DNA of 64,000 nucleotides from an uncultured candidatus Porisulfidus sp. (GTDB lineage: Bacteria > Pseudomonadota > Gammaproteobacteria > Poriferisulfidales > Poriferisulfidaceae). The stretch is taken from contig OY288106.1 in assembly GCA_958431155.1 (NCBI GenBank), positions 1,197,888 through 1,261,887 of the forward strand, read 5' to 3'. Position numbers and translations under genes: made by a program. Positions 11,873 to 61,709 of this stretch are shown one piece after another; the first letter of the stretch is position 1, and the number at the start of each line of letters is the position of its first letter. The notes beneath the pieces are model-generated. The model worked only from the letters and a program-made list of their open reading frames with translations, was not told where the DNA came from and ran no database searches.

Positions 11873-13045
11873 TTATCGGTCGAGCGGCGTGGCGCGGCGT
11901 ACCGCGAGCCAACCGATTAACATGCCAGCCATAGCAATGGCGGCGGCGGCATGGAACGTGACCGTCGAACCGAGACCGTCCCAAACCATCCCGCTCAACA
12001 GACATCCGAGGGCCGCGCCCACGCCAAAGTTGAGCGATGAATACAATGCCTGACCCCGGCTCTGTAGCCGGCCGGGAAACAGTTGGTGGATAAGCCGTAC
12101 CGACACAGCGTGGTAAAGGCCGTAGGTCGCTGCGTGCAAGAGCTGGGTCGCTAGAATCACCCCCCAAAACTGCGGGAAACTACCCAGCATTGTCCAGCGA
12201 ATGGCTGCGAGCAGAAAAGCCAGTGCAAATAGATAATACGCCCGATGGTGCGCAAGATAGCGGGAAAAGAACAGGAACACCAGAATCTCCCCGAACACGC
12301 CTACCGACCACAGCACGGCCAGGCCCTGGATCGGATAACCGTGGCCTTCCAAATAGATCGAGAAAAACGTATAGAACGGCCCGTGGCTGATTTGCATCAG
12401 GACGAATGCCGCCAAGAGCCCCAGCACGGCCGGATGGCGCAGTAGGTTGATCAGGGTGATGTGTGCCGGATGCTCCCGCATCTGCGGCCGGCTCGTCAGC
12501 ATCAAGGTGGTCACCCACAGCCCGGAGTGACAGAAGAGCAAGCTCAGTGGCACCAACCACCAGATATCGCCATCTACACTGAACAACACGGTCGACAGGG
12601 TCAGGCAGGCTGCCACAAAACCCATGGAGCCCCATAATCGAACCCGCGTATAGGAATAACGTTTTTCGGTGTGATGCTCCAGATGAGTCAGCGTAATGCC
12701 TTCAACCAGTGGCAGAGAGGCATACCAGAAGAAACTGAACATCAGCAACAACGGGATCATCCCGTAAAAGCTGGTGACCCACTGCAGGCCCAGAGTGCCT
12801 GCCGCGCCCCCCAGTGCGGCCAATTGCACCAGCAGAATGCGTCGTTCGGTGTGATCCGCGAGCCAGGCCCACACATTCGGGGCCACGATCCCCGCCGCCA
12901 TCACAACCGCCACCAACTGCCCGATCTCGATCGCATTGAAGCCGAGAGACTTCAAGTACAGCGGCCAGAATGGCAGGAAAACGCCAAGCGAGGCGAAATA
13001 GAAAAAATAAAAGCCGGAGAACCGGGCGAATAGGGAAGGAGTCAC
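11873..13045 (-). CDS. MFS transporter, LacY/HcaT-like subfamily
   Basis: 390 aa. N-terminal FSGFYFFYFASLGVFLPFWPLYL motif typical of the HcaT/nucleoside-H+ MFS subfamily; 12 TM segments. Confidence 0.7.
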   Translation of the reverse strand: MTPSLFARFSGFYFFYFASLGVFLPFWPLYLKSLGFNAIEIGQLVAVVMAAGIVAPNVWAWLADHTERRILLVQLAALGGAAGTLGLQWVTSFYGMIPLLLMFSFFWYASLPLVEGITLTHLEHHTEKRYSYTRVRLWGSMGFVAACLTLSTVLFSVDGDIWWLVPLSLLFCHSGLWVTTLMLTSRPQMREHPAHITLINLLRHPAVLGLLAAFVLMQISHGPFYTFFSIYLEGHGYPIQGLAVLWSVGVFGEILVFLFFSRYLAHHRAYYLFALAFLLAAIRWTMLGSFPQFWGVILATQLLHAATYGLYHAVSVRLIHQLFPGRLQSRGQALYSSLNFGVGAALGCLLSGMVWDGLGSTVTFHAAAAIAMAGMLIGWLAVRRATPLDR

Positions 13046-42696: not shown

Positions 42697-43320
42697 ATGT
42701 CTCCGACCCCGGAAGAACTGAGACTGGATCGCCAGGCGCGCGAACTCCACGTCCGCTTCGACGATGGTGCCCAATTCGTGCTCCCCTGCGAGTACCTGCG
42801 CGTCTTTTCTCCCTCCGCCGAGGTGAAAACGGCGAGGGCTCGCGGCGACTTGATCACCGACAAGCAGTACGTCAACATTGAGCGCATCGAGCCCTGCGGG
42901 ACGTACGCCGTTCGTCTCTACTTCAGCGACGGCCATGACACCGGAATCTATTCCTGGGAATCCCTGTACCAGTTAGGCCAAGACCGTCAGAAAAACTGGC
43001 AACAGTATTTGGTTGATCTCGAACGACGAAGATCCACCACGGAAGGCGAAGAGCGGGTCATCACCATTCTACTGTTCGGCGCCTTAGCCGAAGAAGTGGA
43101 GATGGAACGCGTGGACGTGTCCCTGCCCAGCGAAACGTCAACTGTCGCCGAACTTTTATACTGGCTGCGCCAGCGTGGGGACGACTGGCACGAGGCTATC
43201 GACCCCAGACGGCTGACCATCACGGTCAACCGGCAATCTGCCGAGCCAACCACCCGCCTGCACAATGGAGACGAGGTCTCGCTGACCCCGACCTACAAAA
43301 AAAAGAAACCTGACAGCTGA
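42697..43320 (+). CDS. Fusion protein: N-terminal DUF971 (GBBH-like N-domain) plus C-terminal MoaD/ThiS-like beta-grasp domain lacking the Gly-Gly tail
   Basis: The N-terminal half (LHVRFDDGAQFVLPCEYLRVFSPSAEV...YAVRLYFSDGHDTGIYSWESLYQLG) is DUF971-like. The C-terminal half (ITILLFGALAEEVEMERVDVSLP...TVAELLYWLRQRGDDWHEAI...VNRQSAEPTTRLHNGDEVSL) is MoaD-like but ends TPTYKKKKPDS after an A8 tract. Confidence 0.55.
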   Translation: MSPTPEELRLDRQARELHVRFDDGAQFVLPCEYLRVFSPSAEVKTARARGDLITDKQYVNIERIEPCGTYAVRLYFSDGHDTGIYSWESLYQLGQDRQKNWQQYLVDLERRRSTTEGEERVITILLFGALAEEVEMERVDVSLPSETSTVAELLYWLRQRGDDWHEAIDPRRLTITVNRQSAEPTTRLHNGDEVSLTPTYKKKKPDS

Positions 43321-43322
43321 TT

Positions 43323-44678
43323 TCAGTTGGACACGGCGGCAAGTTCGGTCAGCAAGACCCCAGTCAGCGCGCAAGTGAGCAGCACCGGCACCACCGGCAC
43401 CCGCCCGGCGGAGATGGCCAGCAAGGCCAGACCGGTCATCAGCACCATGTTCCAATCCGGCGAGGCTTCCCAGCCGTGCGTCCAGATGACATAACCCGCG
43501 AAAGTTACCGCCAAATTCAGCATTACGCCGACGACCGCCGCCGTGATTGCAGTCAGTGGAGCGGTAAACGCGGGGCGGTTGCGGGTCCGCTCGATGTATG
43601 GCGCGCCAATGAAGATGAACAGGAATGAGGGCAGAAACGTATACCAGGCCGCCACCGCGGCGGCCAGAATTCCTGCTTGCTCGATTCGGCCCGGCCCCAG
43701 CAACTGGCCTTCCCATCCCCCTACAAAGCCGACAAAGGAGGTAATCATGACCAATGGGCCTGGAATCAGTTCACGCAACGCAAGCCCGTCGATCATCTGG
43801 GCCGCGGTAATCCATTGGAAGTGCTCCACCGCGCTCTGATACACGTAGGGAAGAACCGCATAGGCACCCCCGAAGGACAGAACGGCGGCCTTGCTGAAGA
43901 ATACCGACATGTCCGTCAGTGTGCCGCTGTCGTCGATCAAATGAGCGGCTCCATACACTGCCGCCCATAACCCGGCCCCAGCCACGCACAACCAAAAAAC
44001 CCCGCGCCGGGTGATCGAAAGTGCAGACACGAGACCGTCTTCGTGCTCCTCCGTGGCCTCGGGATCGGCCGGTGCCACCCAGGCGGGCTTGGCGTGATGC
44101 ACCAGCCAGCCCAGAACGCCTGCAGAGATGATGATCAACGGAAAGGGAAGGTGGAACACGTACAGTCCGGCGAACGCCGCGAGCATCACTGCCCATAGCA
44201 GGACATTGCGCATGACACGCCGGCCAATTCTCCAGATCGCATACAAAATCACTGCCGTCACCGCCGGCTTGACCCCATACAGCAGCGCGGCCACCCAGCG
44301 GATATCTCCGAATTCCAGATATAGCCAGGCAAGCGCCACGATCATGAGGAGCGAAGGGGCGACGAACAGAACGCCTGCGATCAGCCCCCCCAACTTTCCA
44401 TGCAATAACCAACCGATATAGGTCGCCAGCTGCTGCGCCTCCGGGCCCGGCAGCACCATGGTGTAGTTGAGAGCGTGAAGAAACCGCCGCTCCGAAATCC
44501 AGCGCAACCGTTCCACCAGTTCCAGGTGCATGATTCCGATCGCACCGCCCGGGCCGCCAAAACTGACAAACCCCAAGCGCAACCAGTAGCGCATGGCCTG
44601 CCACAGGCTGAGCGATGTCGGCGCGGTCTTGTGCGGCTCGGTCATTTGGGGCACACTAGGTCTCCGGTCCCAAAACAA
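43323..44678 (-). CDS. chrA: Chromate efflux transporter
   Basis: LGFVSFGGPGGAIGIMHLELVERLRWISERRFLHALNYTMVLPGPEAQQLATYIGW in duplicated CHR domains; about 440 aa. The start could be the Met at 44645. Confidence 0.9.
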   Translation of the reverse strand: MFWDRRPSVPQMTEPHKTAPTSLSLWQAMRYWLRLGFVSFGGPGGAIGIMHLELVERLRWISERRFLHALNYTMVLPGPEAQQLATYIGWLLHGKLGGLIAGVLFVAPSLLMIVALAWLYLEFGDIRWVAALLYGVKPAVTAVILYAIWRIGRRVMRNVLLWAVMLAAFAGLYVFHLPFPLIIISAGVLGWLVHHAKPAWVAPADPEATEEHEDGLVSALSITRRGVFWLCVAGAGLWAAVYGAAHLIDDSGTLTDMSVFFSKAAVLSFGGAYAVLPYVYQSAVEHFQWITAAQMIDGLALRELIPGPLVMITSFVGFVGGWEGQLLGPGRIEQAGILAAAVAAWYTFLPSFLFIFIGAPYIERTRNRPAFTAPLTAITAAVVGVMLNLAVTFAGYVIWTHGWEASPDWNMVLMTGLALLAISAGRVPVVPVLLTCALTGVLLTELAAVSN

Positions 44679-50076: not shown

Positions 50077-50164
<88 letters not shown>

Positions 50165-50652: not shown

Positions 50653-50804
50653 GAGTTTTCCTCGTGTTGAGTTATTCCCATTCTACTCTTGGGCGGCCAT
50701 AATAATAAGGTTCGGCATCAGCTTCACATACTCCGCACCGTGGGAGTGCAGAGATGGAATCACGTGCCAGTGCCGACAGCGAATTTGAAAAAGAGAATGT
50801 CCGC

Positions 50805-51982: not shown

Positions 51983-52722
51983 TGCGCCAACCTCCGGATT
52001 CCCTGTTCCCGCTCACCGTCTCCGGCCTTGATTTTTCTGTCGGAGGAGAGCAACTGCTGTCCGGCTTGTCGTTTGAGTTGCTAGGGAAAGGTTGCACGGC
52101 AATTCTTGGTCCGAACGGTTCCGGCAAGACCCTGCTGCTGCGTCTGTGCCATGGAATGCTCACACCCACAGGCGGCTCCATCCACTGGGGGGATGCCACA
52201 CCGGCCCAAGCCCTGCCATCGCAGGCCATGGTCTTCCAATTGCCCGCCATGCTCAACCGCAGCGTGTGGGCAAATATCGACTATGCGCTGAGGCTGCGCC
52301 GTGTTTCACGCACCGAGCGGCAGCGGCTTGTCCAAGAAGCTGTCGAGCTCTGCGGCCTGACTGAGGTCGTTGGGCGCAATGCCCGGGTCCTGTCCGGCGG
52401 TGAACGGCAGAAGCTGGCCATCGCGCGAGCCTGGATCACTCGGCCCCGCGCCCTGCTGATGGACGAACCCACCTCGGAACTGGACCCGCTCGCCACTCGG
52501 GAGATCGAAGCCATGATCCAGAGAGTCGTCGCCCAAGGTGTTCGCGTCATTCTGGCCACGCACGACATGAACCAAGTCCGTCACCTGGCGGATGACGTCC
52601 TTTTTTTGGAATATGGCCGCCTACGGGCCCACCTGCCGATCGGGGATTTTCTGAATTACCAAGGCGATGACACCATGCGCGATTTTGTCACTCATCCCAC
52701 CCGTTCCAGAACCATCCCGTGA
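51979..52722 (+). CDS. tupC: Tungstate ABC transporter ATP-binding protein
   Basis: Walker A GPNGSGKTLL, signature LSGGERQKLAIARA, Walker B LLMDEPTSELD. Confidence 0.75.
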   Translation: MMRQPPDSLFPLTVSGLDFSVGGEQLLSGLSFELLGKGCTAILGPNGSGKTLLLRLCHGMLTPTGGSIHWGDATPAQALPSQAMVFQLPAMLNRSVWANIDYALRLRRVSRTERQRLVQEAVELCGLTEVVGRNARVLSGGERQKLAIARAWITRPRALLMDEPTSELDPLATREIEAMIQRVVAQGVRVILATHDMNQVRHLADDVLFLEYGRLRAHLPIGDFLNYQGDDTMRDFVTHPTRSRTIP

Positions 52723-53540
52723 ACGCCATGCGCCTCGTGTCCGTTTTTGCCTTGAGTTGCTTGGTACTGCCCTGTGCGGTGGCTGAGACGGAATTCCTGA
52801 CGATTGCGTCCACCACCTCTACGGACCACTCGGGCCTGTACGATCACCTGCTCCCGATCTACGAAAATAAAGCTGGCGTGAGTTTCCGAGTCGTGGCCGT
52901 CGGGACCGGGCAAGCCATCCGCAATGCGATGCGGGGGGATGCCGATTTGCTGATTGTTCACCACCGCGAATCGGAAGAGCGTTTCGTCGTCGAAGGCTAC
53001 GGGCTGCGACGGGACGACCTGATGTACAACGAGTTCATGCTGATCGGGCCGCGCGAGGATCCTGCAAAGGTTGCGAAAGCAGGCAACATTGAGGAAGCCT
53101 TACGCCGGATTTCTCTGTCGGGTTTTACTTTCGTTTCTCGTGGCGATGACAGCGGAACCCACAAGCGAGAGTTGGAGTTATGGGAAAGAGCAAGCGTTCA
53201 GGTACGCCCCGCCAGCGGCGACTGGTACTGGGAAGCCGGGGCCGGCATGGGTCCCACCTTGAACACTGCCGCTGCACGCAATGCCTATGTGTTGAGTGAT
53301 GGCGCCACCTGGGCTGCATTCGGCAATCGGCAGGATCTCGTGGCGCTATACCGGGATGGCCCCCTGCTGCACAACCAATACGGCATCATCGTAGTCAATC
53401 CCAACCGCCACCCGCACGTCAAGGAAAAACAGGCAAAAGAATTTTCGGAATGGCTACTGTCGGAAGAAGGACAGAAAGCGATCGCAACTTTCAAAATCAA
53501 CGGAAAACAGGTGTTTTTCCCAAACGCCCGGCCCCGATAA
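52719..53540 (+). CDS. tupA: Tungstate-binding periplasmic protein TupA
   Basis: Signal peptide plus the diagnostic TupA motif IASTTSTDHSGL (TTSTxxSGL) and a PBP type-2 fold. Confidence 0.75.
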   Translation: MNAMRLVSVFALSCLVLPCAVAETEFLTIASTTSTDHSGLYDHLLPIYENKAGVSFRVVAVGTGQAIRNAMRGDADLLIVHHRESEERFVVEGYGLRRDDLMYNEFMLIGPREDPAKVAKAGNIEEALRRISLSGFTFVSRGDDSGTHKRELELWERASVQVRPASGDWYWEAGAGMGPTLNTAAARNAYVLSDGATWAAFGNRQDLVALYRDGPLLHNQYGIIVVNPNRHPHVKEKQAKEFSEWLLSEEGQKAIATFKINGKQVFFPNARPR

Positions 53541-53556
53541 CAATCTATGCCTTAGC

Positions 53557-53868
53557 TCAAGCAAGTTTCTCTCTGTACGGAGCAACCTCGATATCAGCTG
53601 CCTGCTCGCGAGCTTGGGCAATGTCGTAACTGTTCTGCATCCTCAGCAGTGTAGCCATCGATACCCCAAAGGCTTTTTCGATCCGGATCGCCATTTCCGA
53701 CGAAAGGCGCACATGCTCGTGGAGCAATGCAGACAGTGCGGGGCGCGAAACCCCGAGCACCCGCGCTGCGTCGGTCACCGACAAGCCCAGCGGCTCGACA
53801 ATCTCATACCTCACGAATTCTCCCGGGTGGACCGGATTCTTCATTCGAATATTCTGCGTTTTACTCAT
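53557..53868 (-). CDS. HigA-family XRE-type HTH protein (antitoxin-like transcriptional regulator), last gene of the island operon
   Basis: 103 aa. PVHPGEFVRYEIVEPLGLSVTDAARVLGVSRPALSALLHEHVRLSSEMAIRIEKAFGVSMATLLRMQNSYDIAQAR matches the HigA/VapI antidote family. The start overlaps the stop of the 1321-aa gene by 4 bp. Confidence 0.8.
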   Translation of the reverse strand: MSKTQNIRMKNPVHPGEFVRYEIVEPLGLSVTDAARVLGVSRPALSALLHEHVRLSSEMAIRIEKAFGVSMATLLRMQNSYDIAQAREQAADIEVAPYREKLA

Positions 53869-56800
53869 TGCTGATTCCCTGTCCTTCTTACTTTCTCTAT
53901 ATCTTTGCGTATGTCCTCCGCAACTTCTTCAATTTCCCGAGCCACTTTAGGTTCTTTGCCCATTTCCTTTTCAAGCGCAACTGTAAACGGTATAAGTAGT
54001 TTGGCTGATGGCGAAGATTGAACGAAATCGTTGGTATGAGCGGCCCCTTGAGAAACTGTAAAATCGATCAAGGCATATATGGCCTCACTAAGGAGAAATT
54101 CGCAATTGGGTAAGAGCGTGAGTGCCGTTTTAATATCCTGCCCAGCTTGGGGTAAGTCATCACATGCTAGGTGTGCTCGCGATCGAATCAGATAACCCTC
54201 ACACTGGTAGCAACTATAGATTTGCTCCCCATACCGATCAAACAGCAAATTCACCGTATTAATTACCTCATCCAAATGGCCTTGTACTCTTGCACTATTT
54301 GCTAACCGAAGAAAAGCAATAGCAACAGGGTGACGAAGTATGGGATTACTGTTTGTTCCAAAGCGTTGAATCAACTCTTGCCAAACTGCCTTTGCTTGCT
54401 CCTCTTGCCTAAGATCGCTAAGAGCTAGGCCTTTGTAGATTAACATGCGCGCGACTTGGGTATGAAACTGAGGTGCATTTCTGTCGTCGAAGCGTTGCAT
54501 CAGTTGGTCACAAACGGTGATCGTGTCTTCGGGGTAACCCAACTCAAGAAGTGCGGCTCCCTTGTATACAAGGGCCTTCGCAATTGCTTTCAGCATCACA
54601 GGCTTATTGCTACTGCCAAACCGCCGTACAACTTCATCACAGGCGGGAATCGCTTCTTCAAAACGGTTTAATTTAAGGAGTACGCTTGCTTTATTAGTTA
54701 AAGCTTGCACAACAACTCTCAGAATATCAGGCTCATCATTGTCGCCAAACTGCTGTGCAATCTCATCACAGATAATAGCCGCTTCTTCAAACCGATTTGA
54801 CTCATTAAATCTTTGCCCTATATCGAGTAGTAAACGCGCAGCTTGACTACAAATCTCAGGCGCGTCAATACCTCCGCCGAACTGGCGAGCCACTTCACGG
54901 CAAACAGCGATTGCCTGTTCGGAACGATTCAACTCGACAAGCGATTGCACCTTGTTTCCATAAGCATGCGCGACTGCACTAAAAACTTCCGGCACATCAC
55001 TGCTACCAAACTGGCGTATCACTTCGTCACTTACAGTAGCTATCTCTTCAAGGCGATTCAACTCGCCGAGCATGCTTCCTTTATTAGCAAGAGCATGCGC
55101 CACCAGTACAAGCATTTCTGGTTTATCGTTATAGCCGAACAAGTCCACAATCTCGTCACATACAGAAATTGTTTCTTCGAAGTTACCTAACTCGCTAAGC
55201 ACACCACCCTTTTTATATAGTGCCTGTGCTGTAATCTCAAGCAGTTCGGGCATGTCATTGCCACTAAATCGCTGGACAACTTCATCATAGACTACGAGGG
55301 CTTTCCTCGGCTGGTTTAATTTTTCGAGGGCGTTCCCCTTTTCGGTCAATGCCTGGGCAACCACTCTAAGAACTGCCGGCACACCAGTGTCACCAAAGCG
55401 TTGCTCAATCTCGTCACACACAGAAATTGTTTCTTCGAAGTTACCTAACTCGCTAAGCACATCACCCTTTTTAAACAGTGCCTGTGCTGTAATCTCAAGC
55501 AGTTCGGGCATGTCATTGCCACTAAATCGCTGGACAACTTCACCATAGACTACAAGGGCTTTTTCCGGCTGGTTTAATTTTTCGAGGGCGTTCCCCTTTT
55601 CGGTCAATGCCTGGGCAACCACTCTAAGAACTGCTGGCACATCAGTGTCACCAAAGCGTTGCTCAATCTCATCATAGGCGTCGATTGTTTCTTTGGGCTG
55701 ATTTAATTTGATCAGCGTAAGCCCTTTGAAAAAGATAGCCCTCGCGACCTGCTCGACGATCTTCGGTAGATTACTGTCACTGAATCGGTTGACAACCTCA
55801 TCATAAGCCGCGATTTCTTTATCCGGTTGACCTAATGCGTGAAGTGAAACCCCTTTGCTAATCAAAGCTAGTGCGACTTGTTCATGAATCTCAGATACTT
55901 CACTTTCGCCAAATCGACGTACGACCTCATCACAAACGATAATTGCCTCATCGAGCCGATTCGAACTTGCAAGAGTACGTGCTTTAGTTGTAAGGGCCTG
56001 CGCCACTATCTCTAGAACGGCTGGCACTTTACTGTCACCAAACCGGAGCACTACCTCGTCATGGGATACAAGTTCCTCGTCATATTGCTTCGATATGCCG
56101 AGCGTAACACCTTTCAACAAGAGAGCATTAGCAACCTGCTTAGCGAGTTGAGGAGCGTCACTGTCATCGAACTGCCGTGCAATTGTTTCACAAGCGACAA
56201 TCGTTTCCCCGGGTCGTTCCATTTTTAGAAACGAAATACCTGCAGTAATAATTTCTTTTGCCGCCTCCACACGAGCCGACAGCGAATCGTCTATTTCCAA
56301 ACGTTTTAATGTGGAACGAATGATTGCGTCTATGTTTTTCGCTTGACCCTCTTCGGCCACTACGGAGGCTTGCTTAATAGAAACCTTCGCAGGTACTTGC
56401 CCAGCAAGTTTTGTCACATACTGTGGAGAATGTGTGATCGGTCCTAGATTGTCTAGTTTTAATTTGAGAGAAACAGAGTCTGCGGCATCCTCAGACGCAA
56501 CCTTTGGATCAAAACTTTCCGCAAACTCCTCGGGAACAATCGACAATAACTCCTCACGATATTCGGCGAGTACAGGAAGGTCAATCAATTTAATAAACGC
56601 AGCCTGATGAAATGGCATTATCTCCGGCTCCAAGCCATCTGTCTCCCGGATCATGCGGGAAACCAAATCCTTGAGCTGAATCGCCGAATAATATGCATCC
56701 ATGAAGCGAATAAGGGCTTCAATCATTGGTGTTGGTGTTCGGGAACGTCGTAGCAGGTAGTAGATGTTATAGAGTCGCTCTGTCAGATAGTACAGTTTCC

Positions 56801-57830
56801 GCCGAGCCCCACCGCCGACGACCTCTACCGCTCCCCGTTCTACCAAACGGCGAAGCTGAGCACTACTTTGACTAGCATCAAGTCGAGTTCGAGTCGCAAC
56901 TTGACGCGCACTCGCTGGCTCCCACAAATCAGCGAGCGCCAAATACACGCGCCTTTCCTGAGGAGCAAGTACTTCTATGTGGCTCTTAAAGTACTCGGTC
57001 AGATCATCGATTAGCTCCATCAAGTCTGCCATGAAGTCGCGAAACGACAACTCAGCCCCGAATCGGGCAACGATAGAAAGGAGCCTAGGACTACCTCCGG
57101 TAAGAATCTGCAATCCGCGCATTGTCTCTGGGGGGCGATGTTGGCCGGAGACATGCTTCCACAGAACTGCGCATTCCTCTATGCAAAGAGGACGTAAAGT
57201 TTGACTTACAAGAAGATCATAGAAAGCGTGGTTGGATTTATCAATCTCATCAAAGCGAGCGGTCGCACTAGCCAACAGAATGATCCGGGGCTCTGTTTGA
57301 AGGACTTGGCGCAATTGCCACCCAGCATCTGGGTCTGACATGTCCCTGAACATCATGTTCAAGTTCTCAACGATCAAAATGAGTCGTTTCTTTTGCTGGC
57401 TTGAGAAGTCCAGAAGAGAACTAAGACAACGTTTACCGAGCATCCGATCATCGGGAGTATTCCGCAGTTCTTCAACGGTGAGGCTTAGGTTATCTTCCCC
57501 TTCCGGGTACTGTGCTTGATCTGCCAATCGAGACAAAGCTTCCAGCCAGAATTCACCTGCGGTAGCAACTTCGTAACTTTCTTCTGCAAAAACGATCGGG
57601 AAAAAAGAAGATGATAGTGCGGGGTCCCGGCGAATCTCAGCCGCTACTCGAAGGAGAAGGCTGGTCTTACCACAACCACGGGGGCCGATCACCAATCGGT
57701 GTGGGTTTGAATTTCTATCGCATTCGCGCAACATTTCAACAATCGACGCGAATTCATGCGTCCGCACGCAAAATGATGCAATCAACTCATCATCAGTAAG
57801 AAAACCAGGGTTATATTTCACTGTTTTCAT
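53865..57830 (-). CDS. STAND-like P-loop NTPase (AAA_16/PF01637-type ATPase) fused to a large array of about 43-residue alpha-helical tandem repeats; no recognisable effector domain
   Basis: 1321 aa. N-terminus FCVRTHEFASIVEMLRE...RLVIGPRGCGKTSLLLRV (Walker A) and LILIVENLNMM (Walker B-like), then a helical/winged-helix region. Residues about 520-1150 are about 15 repeats of xxVxRFGDSDVPxxLxxVAxALxxKGxxLxxLNRxEEAIxVCDE. GC about 47-50%, against about 62% in flanking DNA. Confidence 0.75.
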   Translation of the reverse strand: MKTVKYNPGFLTDDELIASFCVRTHEFASIVEMLRECDRNSNPHRLVIGPRGCGKTSLLLRVAAEIRRDPALSSSFFPIVFAEESYEVATAGEFWLEALSRLADQAQYPEGEDNLSLTVEELRNTPDDRMLGKRCLSSLLDFSSQQKKRLILIVENLNMMFRDMSDPDAGWQLRQVLQTEPRIILLASATARFDEIDKSNHAFYDLLVSQTLRPLCIEECAVLWKHVSGQHRPPETMRGLQILTGGSPRLLSIVARFGAELSFRDFMADLMELIDDLTEYFKSHIEVLAPQERRVYLALADLWEPASARQVATRTRLDASQSSAQLRRLVERGAVEVVGGGARRKLYYLTERLYNIYYLLRRSRTPTPMIEALIRFMDAYYSAIQLKDLVSRMIRETDGLEPEIMPFHQAAFIKLIDLPVLAEYREELLSIVPEEFAESFDPKVASEDAADSVSLKLKLDNLGPITHSPQYVTKLAGQVPAKVSIKQASVVAEEGQAKNIDAIIRSTLKRLEIDDSLSARVEAAKEIITAGISFLKMERPGETIVACETIARQFDDSDAPQLAKQVANALLLKGVTLGISKQYDEELVSHDEVVLRFGDSKVPAVLEIVAQALTTKARTLASSNRLDEAIIVCDEVVRRFGESEVSEIHEQVALALISKGVSLHALGQPDKEIAAYDEVVNRFSDSNLPKIVEQVARAIFFKGLTLIKLNQPKETIDAYDEIEQRFGDTDVPAVLRVVAQALTEKGNALEKLNQPEKALVVYGEVVQRFSGNDMPELLEITAQALFKKGDVLSELGNFEETISVCDEIEQRFGDTGVPAVLRVVAQALTEKGNALEKLNQPRKALVVYDEVVQRFSGNDMPELLEITAQALYKKGGVLSELGNFEETISVCDEIVDLFGYNDKPEMLVLVAHALANKGSMLGELNRLEEIATVSDEVIRQFGSSDVPEVFSAVAHAYGNKVQSLVELNRSEQAIAVCREVARQFGGGIDAPEICSQAARLLLDIGQRFNESNRFEEAAIICDEIAQQFGDNDEPDILRVVVQALTNKASVLLKLNRFEEAIPACDEVVRRFGSSNKPVMLKAIAKALVYKGAALLELGYPEDTITVCDQLMQRFDDRNAPQFHTQVARMLIYKGLALSDLRQEEQAKAVWQELIQRFGTNSNPILRHPVAIAFLRLANSARVQGHLDEVINTVNLLFDRYGEQIYSCYQCEGYLIRSRAHLACDDLPQAGQDIKTALTLLPNCEFLLSEAIYALIDFTVSQGAAHTNDFVQSSPSAKLLIPFTVALEKEMGKEPKVAREIEEVAEDIRKDIEKVRRTGNQQ
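55151..55666. repeat. Near-perfect 258-bp tandem duplication, two copies, inside the repeat-array coding region
   Basis: 55151-55408 and 55409-55666 differ at only about 10 positions (about 96% identity). Each copy encodes two consecutive 43-aa repeats (FGDTDVPAVLRVVAQALTEKGNALEKLNQP[E/R]KALVVY[G/D]EVVQRFSGNDMPELLEITAQAL[F/Y]KKG.VLSELGNFEETISVCDEIEQR). Confidence 0.85.
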
Positions 57831-57853
57831 GAGATCCTCTTATGCGTTTACTT

Positions 57854-59107
57854 CTAACGAGACATAATTGGGATAAAGTTTTGTCCATACCGAACGCTCC
57901 ACCAGTCTTCAAGCAGACCTGAAATGAAACGGTAACCGCCGCTTTGCCTTTCCAGATACCCATCATGTTCAAGCAAATAAAGCACATCTTCGATAATAAC
58001 CGGATGGGCTCCGGCTTTGACCTCTGCTCTGAGGTGGCGACTGTACTGGTCAATCACGTCATCACTAAGTAAACCACCACCCACGGCAGCCTCCGTCAGC
58101 AATTCCAGAGCAACTCGGTATTCTTCTGTCCTCAGCACCACCCGCAACCGTCCTTGATAATGCTCTAAATCCACCTGCCCCCGCACAGATAGCATTTCAT
58201 TTTCGTATACCTGATCCACATCGTTCAACGAAGCCCGAGTCCGATTTTCACGTCGTAGGTGTTCATGCAGGTACCCGAAAAACTGTTGTATGTGATGCGG
58301 TACATGACACCGCAGACGGCGGCACATGGCCATACGAATGTCAGGGGGAAGCCCGAGCCCATACGCTTCTGCCAATTCGGCAAGGCAGGAAGACGCAGTG
58401 TCTTCGCTCCACGGTTTCAAATCGCAGGGTGCAAAAATGTTTACCTGTGCACTGAGTCCCGCCTGTCGCAGGATAGGCTCCAAACCCACGCTGCCGGAAA
58501 CAATCAGAACGATGCGCCCACGATGCCTCTGGGCGTTCTTTCTCAACCAGCTTAGAAATTTGTCCGTTGCCCGCTTGCCTTCGGTCGTTATATCGTCGCC
58601 ATTCTCTCGTAGCAACCGGCTAACAAAAATTGGCAACTCATCAATGGCCAGCACAACCCGCTGATTATTTTCCGCAAGAGCCGCAATAATATCGTCGCCT
58701 TTACGCCACTGGTTTCCTGCGGCAATTCCTGCGCGCAACTGTACCTGCAATTCTGAGATAGATACGTTATCCACTCGCCCCCCGATCTCCTTCAGGGCGT
58801 TAGAAAAACCAAGCCGGATCCGGCGCCATGCCCCTTTGAGCGATCTGGATTGGGCACCGATTTCGGCGATGGCATCCGCAGGATCAGAAGCATCCTCAAG
58901 ATCAACAAAGATCGTTTCAAATGTCCCTTCCTCTGCCAAGCGCCGCAATAACTCCCTGACTAGGCTCGTTTTTCCCATGCGCCGCGGCGCGGTGATCAGC
59001 GTATGAATTCCATCCCTTGCACGTTCGGAAAGCACTTCAAGTTCTTCGCCCCGATTATAGAAACGGTCTCCATCCACCCAATTTGCCCCTGCTTTTCTCA
59101 ATGACAT
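57854..59107 (-). CDS. AAA+ ATPase (PF01637 'archaeal ATPase'-type) with C-terminal DUF234 domain; first gene of the island operon
   Basis: 417 aa. FYNRGEELEVLSERARDGIHTLITAPRRMGKTSLVREL (F.GRE.EL motif plus Walker A), VLAIDELPIF (Walker B), and a C-terminal ...YLERQSGGYRFISGLLEDWW that matches the DUF234 Y.F.DP.f..W terminus. It is a paralog of the N-terminal ATPase of the downstream 1321-aa gene. Confidence 0.7.
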   Translation of the reverse strand: MSLRKAGANWVDGDRFYNRGEELEVLSERARDGIHTLITAPRRMGKTSLVRELLRRLAEEGTFETIFVDLEDASDPADAIAEIGAQSRSLKGAWRRIRLGFSNALKEIGGRVDNVSISELQVQLRAGIAAGNQWRKGDDIIAALAENNQRVVLAIDELPIFVSRLLRENGDDITTEGKRATDKFLSWLRKNAQRHRGRIVLIVSGSVGLEPILRQAGLSAQVNIFAPCDLKPWSEDTASSCLAELAEAYGLGLPPDIRMAMCRRLRCHVPHHIQQFFGYLHEHLRRENRTRASLNDVDQVYENEMLSVRGQVDLEHYQGRLRVVLRTEEYRVALELLTEAAVGGGLLSDDVIDQYSRHLRAEVKAGAHPVIIEDVLYLLEHDGYLERQSGGYRFISGLLEDWWSVRYGQNFIPIMSR

Positions 59108-59117
59108 AGCCTTTTCC

Positions 59118-59161
59118 CAACGAATTCGTTGCCATCATTATAGTTGGCAACGAATTCGTTG
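59118..59161. promoter_or_regulatory. Two copies of the perfect 14-bp palindrome CAACGAATTCGTTG, 30 bp apart, immediately upstream of the island operon start; candidate operator
   Basis: Copies at 59118-59131 and 59148-59161. The second extends to TTGGCAACGAATTCGTTGTCAA, a 22-bp near-palindrome. The first copy overlaps the presumptive RBS of the 57854..59107 gene. Confidence 0.5.
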
Positions 59162-59222
59162 TCAAGATCTGTCATACTCTTCGGATTTTCTCTAGTAATC
59201 GAGAGCCTTTATCTGTTCTTTC

Positions 59223-60449
59223 CTAGTGCGCTGCCACACCATGCACGCGTTCTGCGCGACGGCGCAACAAGGCCACGGTCGTCAGCAAAAGGATTGAAAT
59301 CAGGACAAAGATCGTCGCCACTGCCAGAATGGTTGGCGAGATCTGCTCCCGAATGCCGGAAAACATCTGCCGAGGGACTGTCCGTTGAGTCACATCGCCG
59401 AGTTGCAGGATTACCACCACCTCGTCGAACGATGTGATGAAAGCGAACAGTGCGCCAGAAACCACGCCGGGGAGAATGATCGGCGTCTGGATCTTGAAAA
59501 AAGTTTGTAGCGGCGAGGCGCCAAGGCTGGTCGCCGCTCGCGCCAGATTGTGGTCGAACCCTGCCAAGGATGCCGTCACCGTAATCACCACGAACGGGAC
59601 GCCGAGCACCGCATGCGCGAAGATCAACCCGGGATAAGTCTTGGCCAGACCAACTTGGCTAAACGCGAAAAACAGCCCGGATGCCGTGATCACGAGCGGC
59701 ACCACCATCGGCGAAATCAACAATGCCATAACCGTCCGCTTGAACGGCATTTCCGAGCGGCTTAGGCCCACTGCGGCCATCGTCCCGAGTGCGGTGGCCA
59801 GAAGGGTCGCAGGTATCCCAATGATGAAGCTGTTCTTGATGGAGCGTATCCACTGCGCGTTGGACCACATGTCGGCCCACCAACCGGTCTCGGCATCCGG
59901 TGCTACCATACCGTTACGTACGATGTCGGCGTACCAGCGCAGGCTGAAAGCGTCCGGCTCGAGATTGAGCATGCCGGCAGTAAAACTGAAGTACGGCTCC
60001 TGATTGAAAGACAGCGGCACCACCACGAAGATCGGCACCACCAGAAACAGGAAAATCAGCGCGCACACTCCCCGGAACATATAGAACAGGAACACTTCGC
60101 GTGGTCCGGCATATTCCGGCAGGCCCTCCCGGTAACGGCCGGTGGCGAGCCACGCGGATGTCGACGCCAAGACCCAGCCAAACGCCAGCATCAGCAGGGC
60201 AAAAGCTATGCCGTGCGTTGCAAGTCCCACCAGTGCGAGCGCGAGCATGCAGAAGGCACGCGCGACATTAGGCGACTCGGGATGGATCGCGGCCGGGAGC
60301 GACAGCAAGGCGAACAGCAAAGCACCTGTCAGCATATACGGAAGCATCAGTGAGGTATCGCCGTATGCCGTGAGCAGCCCGATCAAGGCTCCCGCCACGC
60401 TGCACCAGGCCGCAGCAAACCGGACCGGAGGACGTATCGCCTCGAGCAT
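59223..60449 (-). CDS. ABC transporter permease (PotC/PotI-like) with an extra N-terminal about 120-aa membrane segment
   Basis: The C-terminal about 285 aa (from MFRGVCALIFLFLVVPIF) is a typical PotC-type permease with EAA loop (ARAATSLGASPLQTFFKIQTPI). The full ORF sits 3 bp from the upstream permease stop, which favours the long form. Confidence 0.65.
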   Translation of the reverse strand: MLEAIRPPVRFAAAWCSVAGALIGLLTAYGDTSLMLPYMLTGALLFALLSLPAAIHPESPNVARAFCMLALALVGLATHGIAFALLMLAFGWVLASTSAWLATGRYREGLPEYAGPREVFLFYMFRGVCALIFLFLVVPIFVVVPLSFNQEPYFSFTAGMLNLEPDAFSLRWYADIVRNGMVAPDAETGWWADMWSNAQWIRSIKNSFIIGIPATLLATALGTMAAVGLSRSEMPFKRTVMALLISPMVVPLVITASGLFFAFSQVGLAKTYPGLIFAHAVLGVPFVVITVTASLAGFDHNLARAATSLGASPLQTFFKIQTPIILPGVVSGALFAFITSFDEVVVILQLGDVTQRTVPRQMFSGIREQISPTILAVATIFVLISILLLTTVALLRRRAERVHGVAAH

Positions 60450-60452
60450 GTC

Positions 60453-61709
60453 TCAGCCAAGCCTCATTCGATCGATACCAGACACGCGGTCATAAAGCCA
60501 GTACAGGAACATCACCAGGACCAGCAACACGAAACCCATCGCAGCGGCCAGCGGCCAGTTGAGCGATCTCCGCATGTGGAAATCAATCAGGTTGGAAATC
60601 ATCTGTCCGTCCTGCCCTCCCACCAATGCCGGAGTGATGTAGTAGCCGGTGGCGAGAATGAAAACCAACACCACGCCTGCGCCGACGCCCGCTAGGGTCT
60701 GCGGAAAATACACCCTCCAGAAAGCCACCCAACCGTTCGCGCCCAAGCTATGCGCCGCCTGGACATACGCCTTCGGGATGGTCCGCATGACTGCGTACAG
60801 CGGCAGAATCATGAACGGCAAGAGAATGTGCGTCATAGCGACCAAGGTCCCGGTCCGGTTGTAGACCATGCTGAACCGATTGTCGTCGCCGATGACGCCA
60901 AATGCGACAAATAGATCGTTCAGCACCCCGTTGCCCTGCAGGATCGCGATCCATGCCGTGGTGCGCACCAGGATCGAAGTCCAGAACGGCAGTAACACCA
61001 GTATTAGAAGGAGGTTCGAACGGCGCGCGGGCAGGTTAGACAATAGGTACGCCACCGGATAGCCGAGCAACAGGCAAAAGATCGTGACCAGTGCGGAAAT
61101 CTCGATCGTGCGCCAGAACAGGGTGAGATGGATGCGGCGTTTCTCTTCTTGACGGCGGATGGAACCGTCACCGCGGTACTTGAGATCCACCGAAGTCGCC
61201 AGATAAGCCGGCGTATAACGAGCCGCGGCGACGCGAAGCGCCTGCCAAGTTTCAAGTCGGCCCCATGCCGGCTTGAGGTCGATCATTGCCTGTTTGTAAG
61301 GAGCCTCGAGACGGGCCGCCTTGCGTGCTGTGGAAGTGAACAGCGACCGGCCCCCGGGCGACTCCCGGTTTACCCGGGTGGCCACTTTGCCGATGGTTTT
61401 GTCTTTCCTTGCCTGCACCAAGTCCTTCTGCAGAGCTTCGTACATCGCCTCGGTGGGCTCCGACACACCGTCCCACGCTTCCAACACTGGGGTACTGTGC
61501 GGCATGTAACGCGCGTACGTGTCGTCGTGAACTCCCTGCCACAGAAACAGCAGTACCGGGATAATGAAAGCCGCAAGCAGGAAGGCCAGCAGCGGCAAGG
61601 TCAGCCCCAAGGCCCTAATCCGGCGGACCATGAGCGCCCGCGCCAGTTTTGTCTTAAGCGGCGTACCGTCGGCGGCAAGTACCAGTTCAGAGGTCGTTGG
61701 TGAAGTCAC
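60453..61709 (-). CDS. ABC transporter permease (PotB/PotH-like) with a large periplasmic loop after TM1
   Basis: 418 aa. TM1, then an about 150-aa soluble insertion, then the conserved permease core (EISALVTIFCLLLGYPVAYLLSNLP...AAHSLGANGWVAFWRVYFPQ). Confidence 0.7.
   Translation of the reverse strand: MTSPTTSELVLAADGTPLKTKLARALMVRRIRALGLTLPLLAFLLAAFIIPVLLFLWQGVHDDTYARYMPHSTPVLEAWDGVSEPTEAMYEALQKDLVQARKDKTIGKVATRVNRESPGGRSLFTSTARKAARLEAPYKQAMIDLKPAWGRLETWQALRVAAARYTPAYLATSVDLKYRGDGSIRRQEEKRRIHLTLFWRTIEISALVTIFCLLLGYPVAYLLSNLPARRSNLLLILVLLPFWTSILVRTTAWIAILQGNGVLNDLFVAFGVIGDDNRFSMVYNRTGTLVAMTHILLPFMILPLYAVMRTIPKAYVQAAHSLGANGWVAFWRVYFPQTLAGVGAGVVLVFILATGYYITPALVGGQDGQMISNLIDFHMRRSLNWPLAAAMGFVLLVLVMFLYWLYDRVSGIDRMRLG

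Follow-up and report, generated by a model that had tools for sequence, protein, structure and literature searches.

A low-GC tract carrying two ATPase genes

The stretch analyzed here, 64,000 nucleotides of contig OY288106.1 from an uncultured candidatus Porisulfidus sp. (hereafter the window), carries on its minus strand two adjacent genes for P-loop NTPases, A (417 aa, 57854..59107) and B (1321 aa, 53865-57830), which are separated by a gap of 23 nt and to which we refer together as the cassette. The cassette lies between an ABC-permease gene upstream and higA downstream (53557..53868, minus strand), which encodes a 103-aa HigA-family helix-turn-helix antitoxin (TIGR02607, 96.2 bits versus a cutoff of 47.7) and whose start codon is overlapped by the TGA stop codon of gene B (ATGA). 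A first-pass annotation of the window had recognized both genes as ATPases, correctly, and had pointed to a sharp compositional break around them. Sliding-window profiles of GC content and of GC at third codon positions (GC3) bore this out, and the break was strong. The imported tract, delimited by mismatch density against the closely related contig L082, covers ~5.4 kb (53838..59256) and comprises the end of the permease gene, a promoter and operator region, A, B and the first 31 nt of higA. Its GC content was 48.2% (computed on 53837-59247) compared with 58.7% in the remainder of the window and a mean of 57.8% over the whole 64 kb. The 1-kb windows between 54001 and 58000 ranged from 46.5 to 48.7% GC, with nearly all others at 54-64%; those within the tract averaged 5.2 standard deviations below those outside, none of which was as low as the inside mean. 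Both edges were sharp, the drop beginning at ~53850 and the recovery at ~59200, and the dinucleotide-signature distance of the tract was 78.5, whereas other 5.4-kb windows scored 31.8 ± 9.5 with a maximum of 56. Gene by gene, B had 47.3% GC (GC3 43.6%) and A 52.1% (GC3 51.4%), matching the 47-52% of the first-pass annotation, and the neighboring genes were GC3-rich as it had stated (63.5-73.7%); its background figure of about 62%, however, was ~3-4 points too high, the measured value being ~58-59%.

Low GC might stem from the genes themselves, whether from the composition of their amino acids or repeats or from selection favoring AT-rich codons, and have nothing to do with foreign origin. A small intrinsic deficit does exist: among relatives of the cassette, found by scanning one genome per GTDB species (141 relatives of A, with locus counts here and below taken from the best 80), cassette GC follows that of the host (r ~0.8), lying on average 2-3 points below the cassettes' own flanks (79 loci), and GC at second codon positions is low in gene B (37%). 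Yet the deficit in the window is greatest at third codon positions (GC3 44-51% versus 64-74%) and, at ~11 points, is exceptional in the family, three to five times its average. The closest cassettes (A 67-69% identical) belong to hosts of 46-53% GC, which accounts for a deficit of this size and is consistent with a lower-GC source. Intrinsic composition is insufficient as an explanation, and we give it next to no weight, since it is already refuted by contigs 99% identical to the window from which A and B are missing altogether.

Replacement of a toxin gene by homologous recombination

Exact-protein look-ups with the window's own proteins gave no matches, and contigs with an empty site were reached through the 90%-identity cluster of the window HigA, which yielded eight metagenome contigs (L082-L089). 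At least eight contigs lacked A and B and matched the window, where long enough to compare, at 96-99.6% identity over whichever flanks they cover; five span both. Identity to the window at this level continued in L082-L088 up to 59224 and resumed at 53850, with higB-higA in between, and the six contigs that reach far enough upstream (L082-L086 and L089) carried a gene for a 91-aa HigB-like toxin (PF05015) with a different promoter. The gene order at the empty site is permease-higB-higA-tupA, and the exchange of A and B for higB is the sole structural difference from the window over 20 kb. The first-pass annotation had proposed checking whether tupA is directly followed by the permease gene in relatives that lack the insert; A and B were indeed missing from near-identical contigs, but higB-higA lay between these two genes. 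The resident higA and the position of the cassette thus match the HigBA type II toxin-antitoxin operon of sister strains exactly, with the differences that higB and its promoter are gone and that the cassette proteins are unrelated to HigB.

Comparison with L082, a higBA-type contig 99% identical to the window, located the breakpoints. Mismatches were dense only from 53838 to ~59256, and the next ones on either side were at 53456 and 59354. Crossing over took place 31 nt into higA on one side and, on the other, in the last bases of the ABC-permease gene. The window HigA is accordingly chimeric, with residues 1-11 like the allele of L001, a relative ~84-88% identical to the window, and residues 12-103 identical to those of the higBA strains, so that the gene is a resident one with donor-like codons 1-11. 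No higB was found anywhere in the window by tblastn. As the first-pass annotation had noted, no integrase or transposase open reading frame (ORF) was seen beside the block, and the nearest tRNA gene, tRNA-Leu(CAG) at 50077-50164, is 3.4 kb away; no flanking direct repeats were found at the tract either, and the junctions fall inside homologous genes, none of which fits a classical integrase-mediated island. The tract replaced higB together with the higBA promoter, with no insertion into an intergenic gap. It entered by homologous recombination through the conserved flanks, from a related lineage that already had the order permease-A-B-higA, which explains the absence of an integrase, an att site and a tRNA.

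A, B and higA occupy the same site in L001 and are just as low in GC there. The arrangement thus predates the window strain, and the earlier claim of a recent horizontal acquisition, which the empty-site contigs support, is limited in its word "recent" to arrival in this lineage. Between the window and L001, synonymous divergence (dS) was 0.18-0.44 across the cassette and higA, compared with 0.74-0.90 in the flanking tup genes, which indicates that the cassette alleles are younger than the split of the two host lineages. Within the tract, dS was mosaic (window 53865-59107 versus L001:199-5569), at ~0.44 for A and the N-terminal domain of B and ~0.18-0.20 for the B repeats, the C-terminal cap and higA, a pattern that suggests a possible additional recombination breakpoint near residue 430 of B. 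In the simplest, two-stage history, an older event in the clade would have created permease-A-B-higA, and this allele would then have recombined into the lineage of the window. HigA is best seen here as a leftover of recombination and not as a component of the cassette, since higA and the cassette occur together only in the window and in L001.

Two further differences from L082 were noted close to the tract. Eight mismatches fall within 90 nt of the permease gene (window 59890-59976) and could mark a small separate recombination patch. In higBA-type strains, a perfect inverted repeat, CCGCAT-TGT-ATGCGG (L082:9612-9632), stands right after the permease stop codon and is missing from the window; it may serve as a terminator or as the native operator of HigA.

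Domain architecture of A and B

Gene A encodes a bare nucleotide-binding oligomerization domain (NOD) of the STAND (signal transduction ATPases with numerous domains)/PF01637 type, made up of a P-loop nucleotide-binding domain, a helical domain and a winged helix, with APRRMGKTS as Walker A and LAIDELP as Walker B. A paralogous NOD module makes up residues 1-430 of B (56541..57830, minus strand); its Walker A motif reads GPRGCGKTS, and residues 290-362 form a highly conserved winged helix like those of TrmB and MarR. Both NODs begin no more than 20 residues from the N-terminus, and the Walker motifs of A and B were invariant in alignments. In B, this module is followed at residues 501-1190 (54261..56330, minus strand) by some sixteen tandem 43-residue TPR (tetratricopeptide repeat)-like helical repeats, matched by Pfam TPR_1 (3e-26), TPR_8, TPR_14 and others and visible as a 129-nt periodicity in the DNA, and at residues 1191-1321 by a conserved C-terminal cap (53865..54260, minus strand, stop codon included) with invariant or nearly invariant columns over residues 1212-1306. 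The repeat array contains a young duplication of two repeat units (55093..55608, minus strand), in which 258 nt occur twice at 86% identity and encode the near-identical peptide blocks 716-801 and 802-887. The B homologue of L001 is exactly one 43-residue unit longer (1364 versus 1321 aa). With the duplication in the window, this one-repeat difference argues that the array expands and contracts on a short timescale. Both genes are under purifying selection, with dN/dS of 0.16 in A, 0.07 in the B NOD and 0.33 in the B repeats, and the repeat array is presumed to be the sensor.

The tripartite NOD that defines STAND proteins is present, and the C-terminal repeat region that serves them as a sensor is found in B and not in A, whose end follows the winged helix. 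Against PF01637 (ATPase_2), A scored 30.9 bits and B 28.8 bits with a gathering threshold of 33.2, so that both fall short of membership by Pfam's rule and rank as remote homologues; structurally, PF01637 is the closest family. Compared with its reference structures, PAB2304 (2qen) and SSO1545 (2fna), A has no DUF234 match and B adds a TPR array of ~900 residues, and the PF01637/DUF234 family is itself an orphan in function. Sequence searches of the PDB returned nothing useful.

A promoter overlapped by a conserved operator array

A sigma-70-type promoter, TTGACA-17 nt-TATAAT (59137..59165, minus strand), precedes the ATG of gene A by 30 nt, agrees with the consensus at 12 of 12 positions and is the sole such match in 53300-59400. 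It is overlapped by an operator array of three sites in 15-bp phase (59118..59161), built on the palindrome CAAC-N6-GTTG. One copy of CAACGAATTCGTTG, a perfect 14-bp palindrome, overlaps the -35 element (59148-59161) and a second copy lies at 59118-59131; between them, the degenerate site CAACTATAATGATG (59133-59146) contains the -10 element. The exact palindrome also occurs just upstream of A in a Latescibacterota metagenome-assembled genome (MAG) and in a 'Ca. Rariloculus' MAG. Across the family, 74 of the 80 loci had CAAC-N6-GTTG in the 120 nt before A, and 79 did when one mismatch was allowed. The 9.6 kb upstream of A held 135 sites (14/kb) versus 22 in the other 1.62 Mb (0.0136/kb), an enrichment of ~1000-fold, and the background is at the level of chance, with ~25 sites expected in the 1.6 Mb of flanks. 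Successive sites were spaced by 15 bp in 88 of 102 cases. We considered whether the palindromes are HigA operators and rejected this, as the higBA promoter of sister strains has no CAAC-N6-GTTG motif and the motif precedes A in other phyla without higA. Its absence from the sister promoter indicates that the element belongs to the cassette, not to HigA.

A blind search of JGI metagenomes for two sites in tandem gave at least 120 stretches. In at least 20 of these, a homologue of A (35-53% identical) began 23-140 nt away from the motif; among the matches listed, 11 of the 20 had a B-type NOD downstream as well, and three further stretches adjoined canonical PF01637+DUF234 ATPases. The remaining multi-site matches without gene A were set aside as plain 15-bp tandem repeats or chance matches. 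Single-gene PF01637+DUF234 ATPases of ~470 aa with tandem CAAC-N6-GTTG directly upstream were observed in L116 (397-1835) and two similar metagenome loci. There are hints here that CAAC-N6-GTTG may be a general operator of the orphan PF01637/DUF234 ATPase family.

With the array placed across the -35 and -10 elements, a DNA-binding protein encoded in the cassette would be expected to repress the operon. We infer that the operon is probably autorepressed by a winged helix of the cassette that binds the operator, and we favor A or an A/B complex as the candidate binder because the single-gene PF01637/DUF234 ATPases carry the same motif.

Distribution of the cassette

More than 2000 relatives each of A and of B were present in a database of 5.8 billion proteins. 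Gene A is followed by a homologue of B, at a distance of 3-40 bp, in 79 of the best 80 loci. To judge from record titles, the hosts are Gamma- and Alphaproteobacteria, Acidobacteriota, Chloroflexota (Dehalococcoidia/SAR202), Latescibacterota, Thermodesulfobacteriota, Spirochaetia, Binatia and Gemmatimonadota; they represent at least eight phyla and are all MAGs. Across these phyla, A is 52-69% identical in a manner unrelated to taxonomy. The pair is a strictly conserved module that has spread by horizontal transfer through at least eight phyla. A-family proteins are uniformly ~400-425 aa long (452 clusters, E below 1e-30), and no fusions of the A domain to effector domains were found among 1.8 billion cluster representatives; B varies from ~510 to 1660 aa with the number of repeats. 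The 80 loci shared no third conserved gene that might be an effector, the largest flanking family occurring in eight. In some Dehalococcoidia cassettes, a third gene overlaps the B stop codon; these may be lineage-specific effectors. One of them encodes a trypsin-like peptidase (L058:13388-14215, Trypsin_2, E 1.6e-12), and a conserved 415-aa protein with no Pfam match is encoded at ~13373-14625 in L054, L063, L065 and L067.

More distant A homologues (22-25% identity) occur on plasmids, including those of Clostridium, Segatella and Moraxella, where the order of tandem palindromes, A and B-type NOD is retained. The A-like gene is overlapped by a B-like NOD or TPR gene on plasmids of Clostridium estertheticum and Moraxella osloensis, and tandem or paired palindromes stood upstream of the A-like gene in all four plasmids examined, with half-sites that differ from those of the window and with a phase of 16-17 bp in Clostridium and Segatella. 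Several MAG names (APA_bin, RHO2_bin, Langseth, SAR202 bin87), and PetF among the sister contigs, hint at an origin in sponge microbiomes. No description of the module or its operator was found in the literature searched (paired bacterial STANDs, and PF01637/DUF234 in defense), which is weak negative evidence. A recent census distinguished 589 STAND clades, 198 of them associated with defense (10.64898/2026.01.04.697583), and may include the clade of the cassette without describing it.

Possible roles of the module

On balance, we consider it probable that A and B constitute a mobile, autoregulated operon for a sensor pair resembling nucleotide-binding leucine-rich repeat receptors (NLRs), acquired in the window lineage by replacing higB, and that conflict or defense is the most likely role. 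Taken by itself, a role in conflict or defense, as the sensing of phages or other mobile genetic elements, has in our estimate somewhat less than an even chance. B would sense a ligand through its rapidly varying repeat array, oligomerize with ATP and then engage A, as in a sensor/helper NLR pair; possible outputs would be derepression, coating of DNA by A, consumption of ATP or recruitment of a host factor. Supporting context for a conflict role comes from the variation of the cassette among strains, its position in a toxin-antitoxin slot, the differences in repeat number among close relatives and the known defense genes in its vicinity. Septu PtuA/PtuB genes stand directly downstream of the cassette in L009, a DUF1156 methylase adjoins it in L007 and L011, and an MmeI-like enzyme is encoded beside it in L068 and near it in L001. 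Among the plasmid homologues, that of Moraxella has Qat genes beside it, that of Segatella WYL and DUF262 genes, and that of Clostridium genes for DUF3800, a GIY-YIG nuclease and a recombinase.

Several observations weigh against a sensor pair with a role in defense. Neither A nor B has an effector domain in Pfam, and PADLOC models gave only P-loop noise (best mad8, E 3.5e-5 and 6.6e-5, others weaker). Walker B of gene B, LILIVEN, has the atypical form hhhhEN, and sequence similarity between A and B is confined to the P-loop. The winged helix of B is, by its sequence, at least as conserved and as basic as that of A and would be an equally good candidate for binding the operator. The neighbors of most of the 80 loci are housekeeping genes, and the PADLOC scan of the flanks gave counts per family only. 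No homologues of A were found in the phage and viral collections, and the sponge habitat is read from the names of MAGs and contigs.

Among known systems, the Avs/AVAST proteins (Avs1-21 and related defense-associated STAND clades) are close in several respects: they too carry a long sensor of TPR-like helical repeats behind a central P-loop NOD, show a patchy, horizontally transferred distribution, and in some copies lie beside other defense genes. Avs proteins, however, are single polypeptides defined by an N-terminal effector (nuclease, protease, SIR2, TIR or others) fused to the NTPase, whereas the cassette has no effector, obligatorily encodes a second, bare NOD, is preceded by a conserved operator and has no match to the PADLOC Avs models. 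The likeness to paired plant NLRs and to NB-ARC proteins of the CED-4/Apaf-1 type is one of architecture only, at 9-14% sequence identity, and the cassette lacks their CC (coiled-coil), TIR or CARD signaling domains.

A more specific proposal is that the cassette represents an undescribed, effectorless class of mobile STAND modules, apparently especially common in sponge-associated communities, in which A would be an ATP-dependent operator binder and B a pattern sensor. The two would form a bacterial sensor/helper NLR pair, with an output that is transcriptional or otherwise directed at DNA in place of killing by an enzyme. We put this forward tentatively, and in its full form it is rather doubtful. 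If it were true, operator binding by A would be the first function for the orphan PF01637/DUF234 "archaeal ATPase" family.

The strongest alternative is a STAND regulator of signal transduction or transcription like MalT or AfsR, with no role in immunity, in which B would sense a small molecule or protein and A, B or both would bind CAAC-N6-GTTG, controlling their own operon and possibly distant host genes too. STAND regulators that sense through TPR-like domains form a recognized class. They are mentioned in PMC13581612. A conserved operator overlapping the promoter, TrmB/MarR-type winged helices in both proteins, the lack of an effector and the many loci among housekeeping genes would all suit such a regulator. 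Its targets, however, are not apparent: the 80 loci had no conserved neighboring target genes, and the motif is at chance density outside the cassette promoters (22 sites versus ~25 expected in 1.6 Mb). Moreover, Pfam found neither the LuxR nor the SARP DNA-binding output domain of MalT and the AfsR/SARP-LAL regulators, and the cassette differs from them in being a mobile pair of genes; a module that has no conserved regulon, moves between phyla and varies among 99%-identical strains behaves like a selfish or defense element. We therefore regard a non-immune regulator as unlikely.

Less likely again is an addiction-type selfish module similar to a toxin-antitoxin system, in which one ATPase would be toxic, for instance by polymerizing on DNA like MuB, TnsC or Orc, and would be restrained by the other or by tight autorepression, so that the module would persist by post-segregational killing and not by sensing invaders. 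The presence of higA beside the cassette only here and in L001 makes the link to higA a matter of local history. A long, rapidly varying TPR array would be hard to account for, and the closest structural relatives of A are STAND NODs and not the initiator clade, which leaves this reading quite improbable.

TPR-rich eukaryote-like proteins are a reported feature of sponge symbionts (10.1101/328013), and the family is abundant in MAGs with sponge-microbiome-like names, so B might be a symbiosis factor that manipulates the host. But B has an N-terminal NTPase-NOD, an obligatory pairing with a second cytoplasmic ATPase, an operator of its own and no secretion signal evident in its N-terminal sequence, and the pair has homologues in metagenomes from soil, freshwater and sediment as well as on the Clostridium, Segatella and Moraxella plasmids, which makes this role very improbable. 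A replication or maintenance module left by a degraded integrative element, with A as an Orc1/Cdc6-like initiator and the palindromes as iterons, is scarcely credible, as the sites overlap the -35 and -10 elements in operator geometry, no AT-rich unwinding element or other mobile-element gene lies nearby, nearly all copies are chromosomal two-gene units with none found in phage collections, and the tract entered by homologous recombination.

As an island, the tract is an ordinary horizontally acquired block; it is the exchange of a toxin gene for the cassette and the operator-A-B architecture that are worth following. The replacement of a toxin gene by a 5.4-kb two-gene module among 99%-identical strains, through homologous recombination, indicates that such modules move without integrases. 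The combination of an operator, a bare NOD and a NOD-TPR protein defines a compact, testable family with thousands of members, a strongly conserved cis-element and no known effector. Should the cassette prove to be an immune sensor, it would be a bacterial counterpart of paired NLRs; should it be a regulator, it would provide a DNA target for the large orphan family of PF01637/DUF234 ATPases. Either way, the conserved 14-bp palindrome is an immediate experimental handle.

Other features near the cassette

L001 carries an extra 6.8-kb island of 41-49% GC (L001:8620-15460) between the PCuAC-like and pterin-4a genes, the window counterpart of which is only 115 bp long (50689-50803). Its five genes include one for a 751-aa MmeI_Mtase/Eco57I/Type_ISP_C enzyme, and there is a faint SIR2_2 match. 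The site is a second variable, defense-like slot no more than 3 kb from the cassette and near tRNA-Leu(CAG). The gene called tupA (52719-53540) scored 204 bits against the NCBIfam TupA model, for which the cutoff is 400; it encodes a PBP_like_2 substrate-binding protein, for which tungstate is at most a putative ligand. Finally, AT skew was unusually high (0.24-0.31) in the 1-kb windows 12001-13000, 43001-44000 and 60001-61000, the last of which coincides with a minus-strand membrane-permease gene, where the skew probably reflects hydrophobic codon usage.

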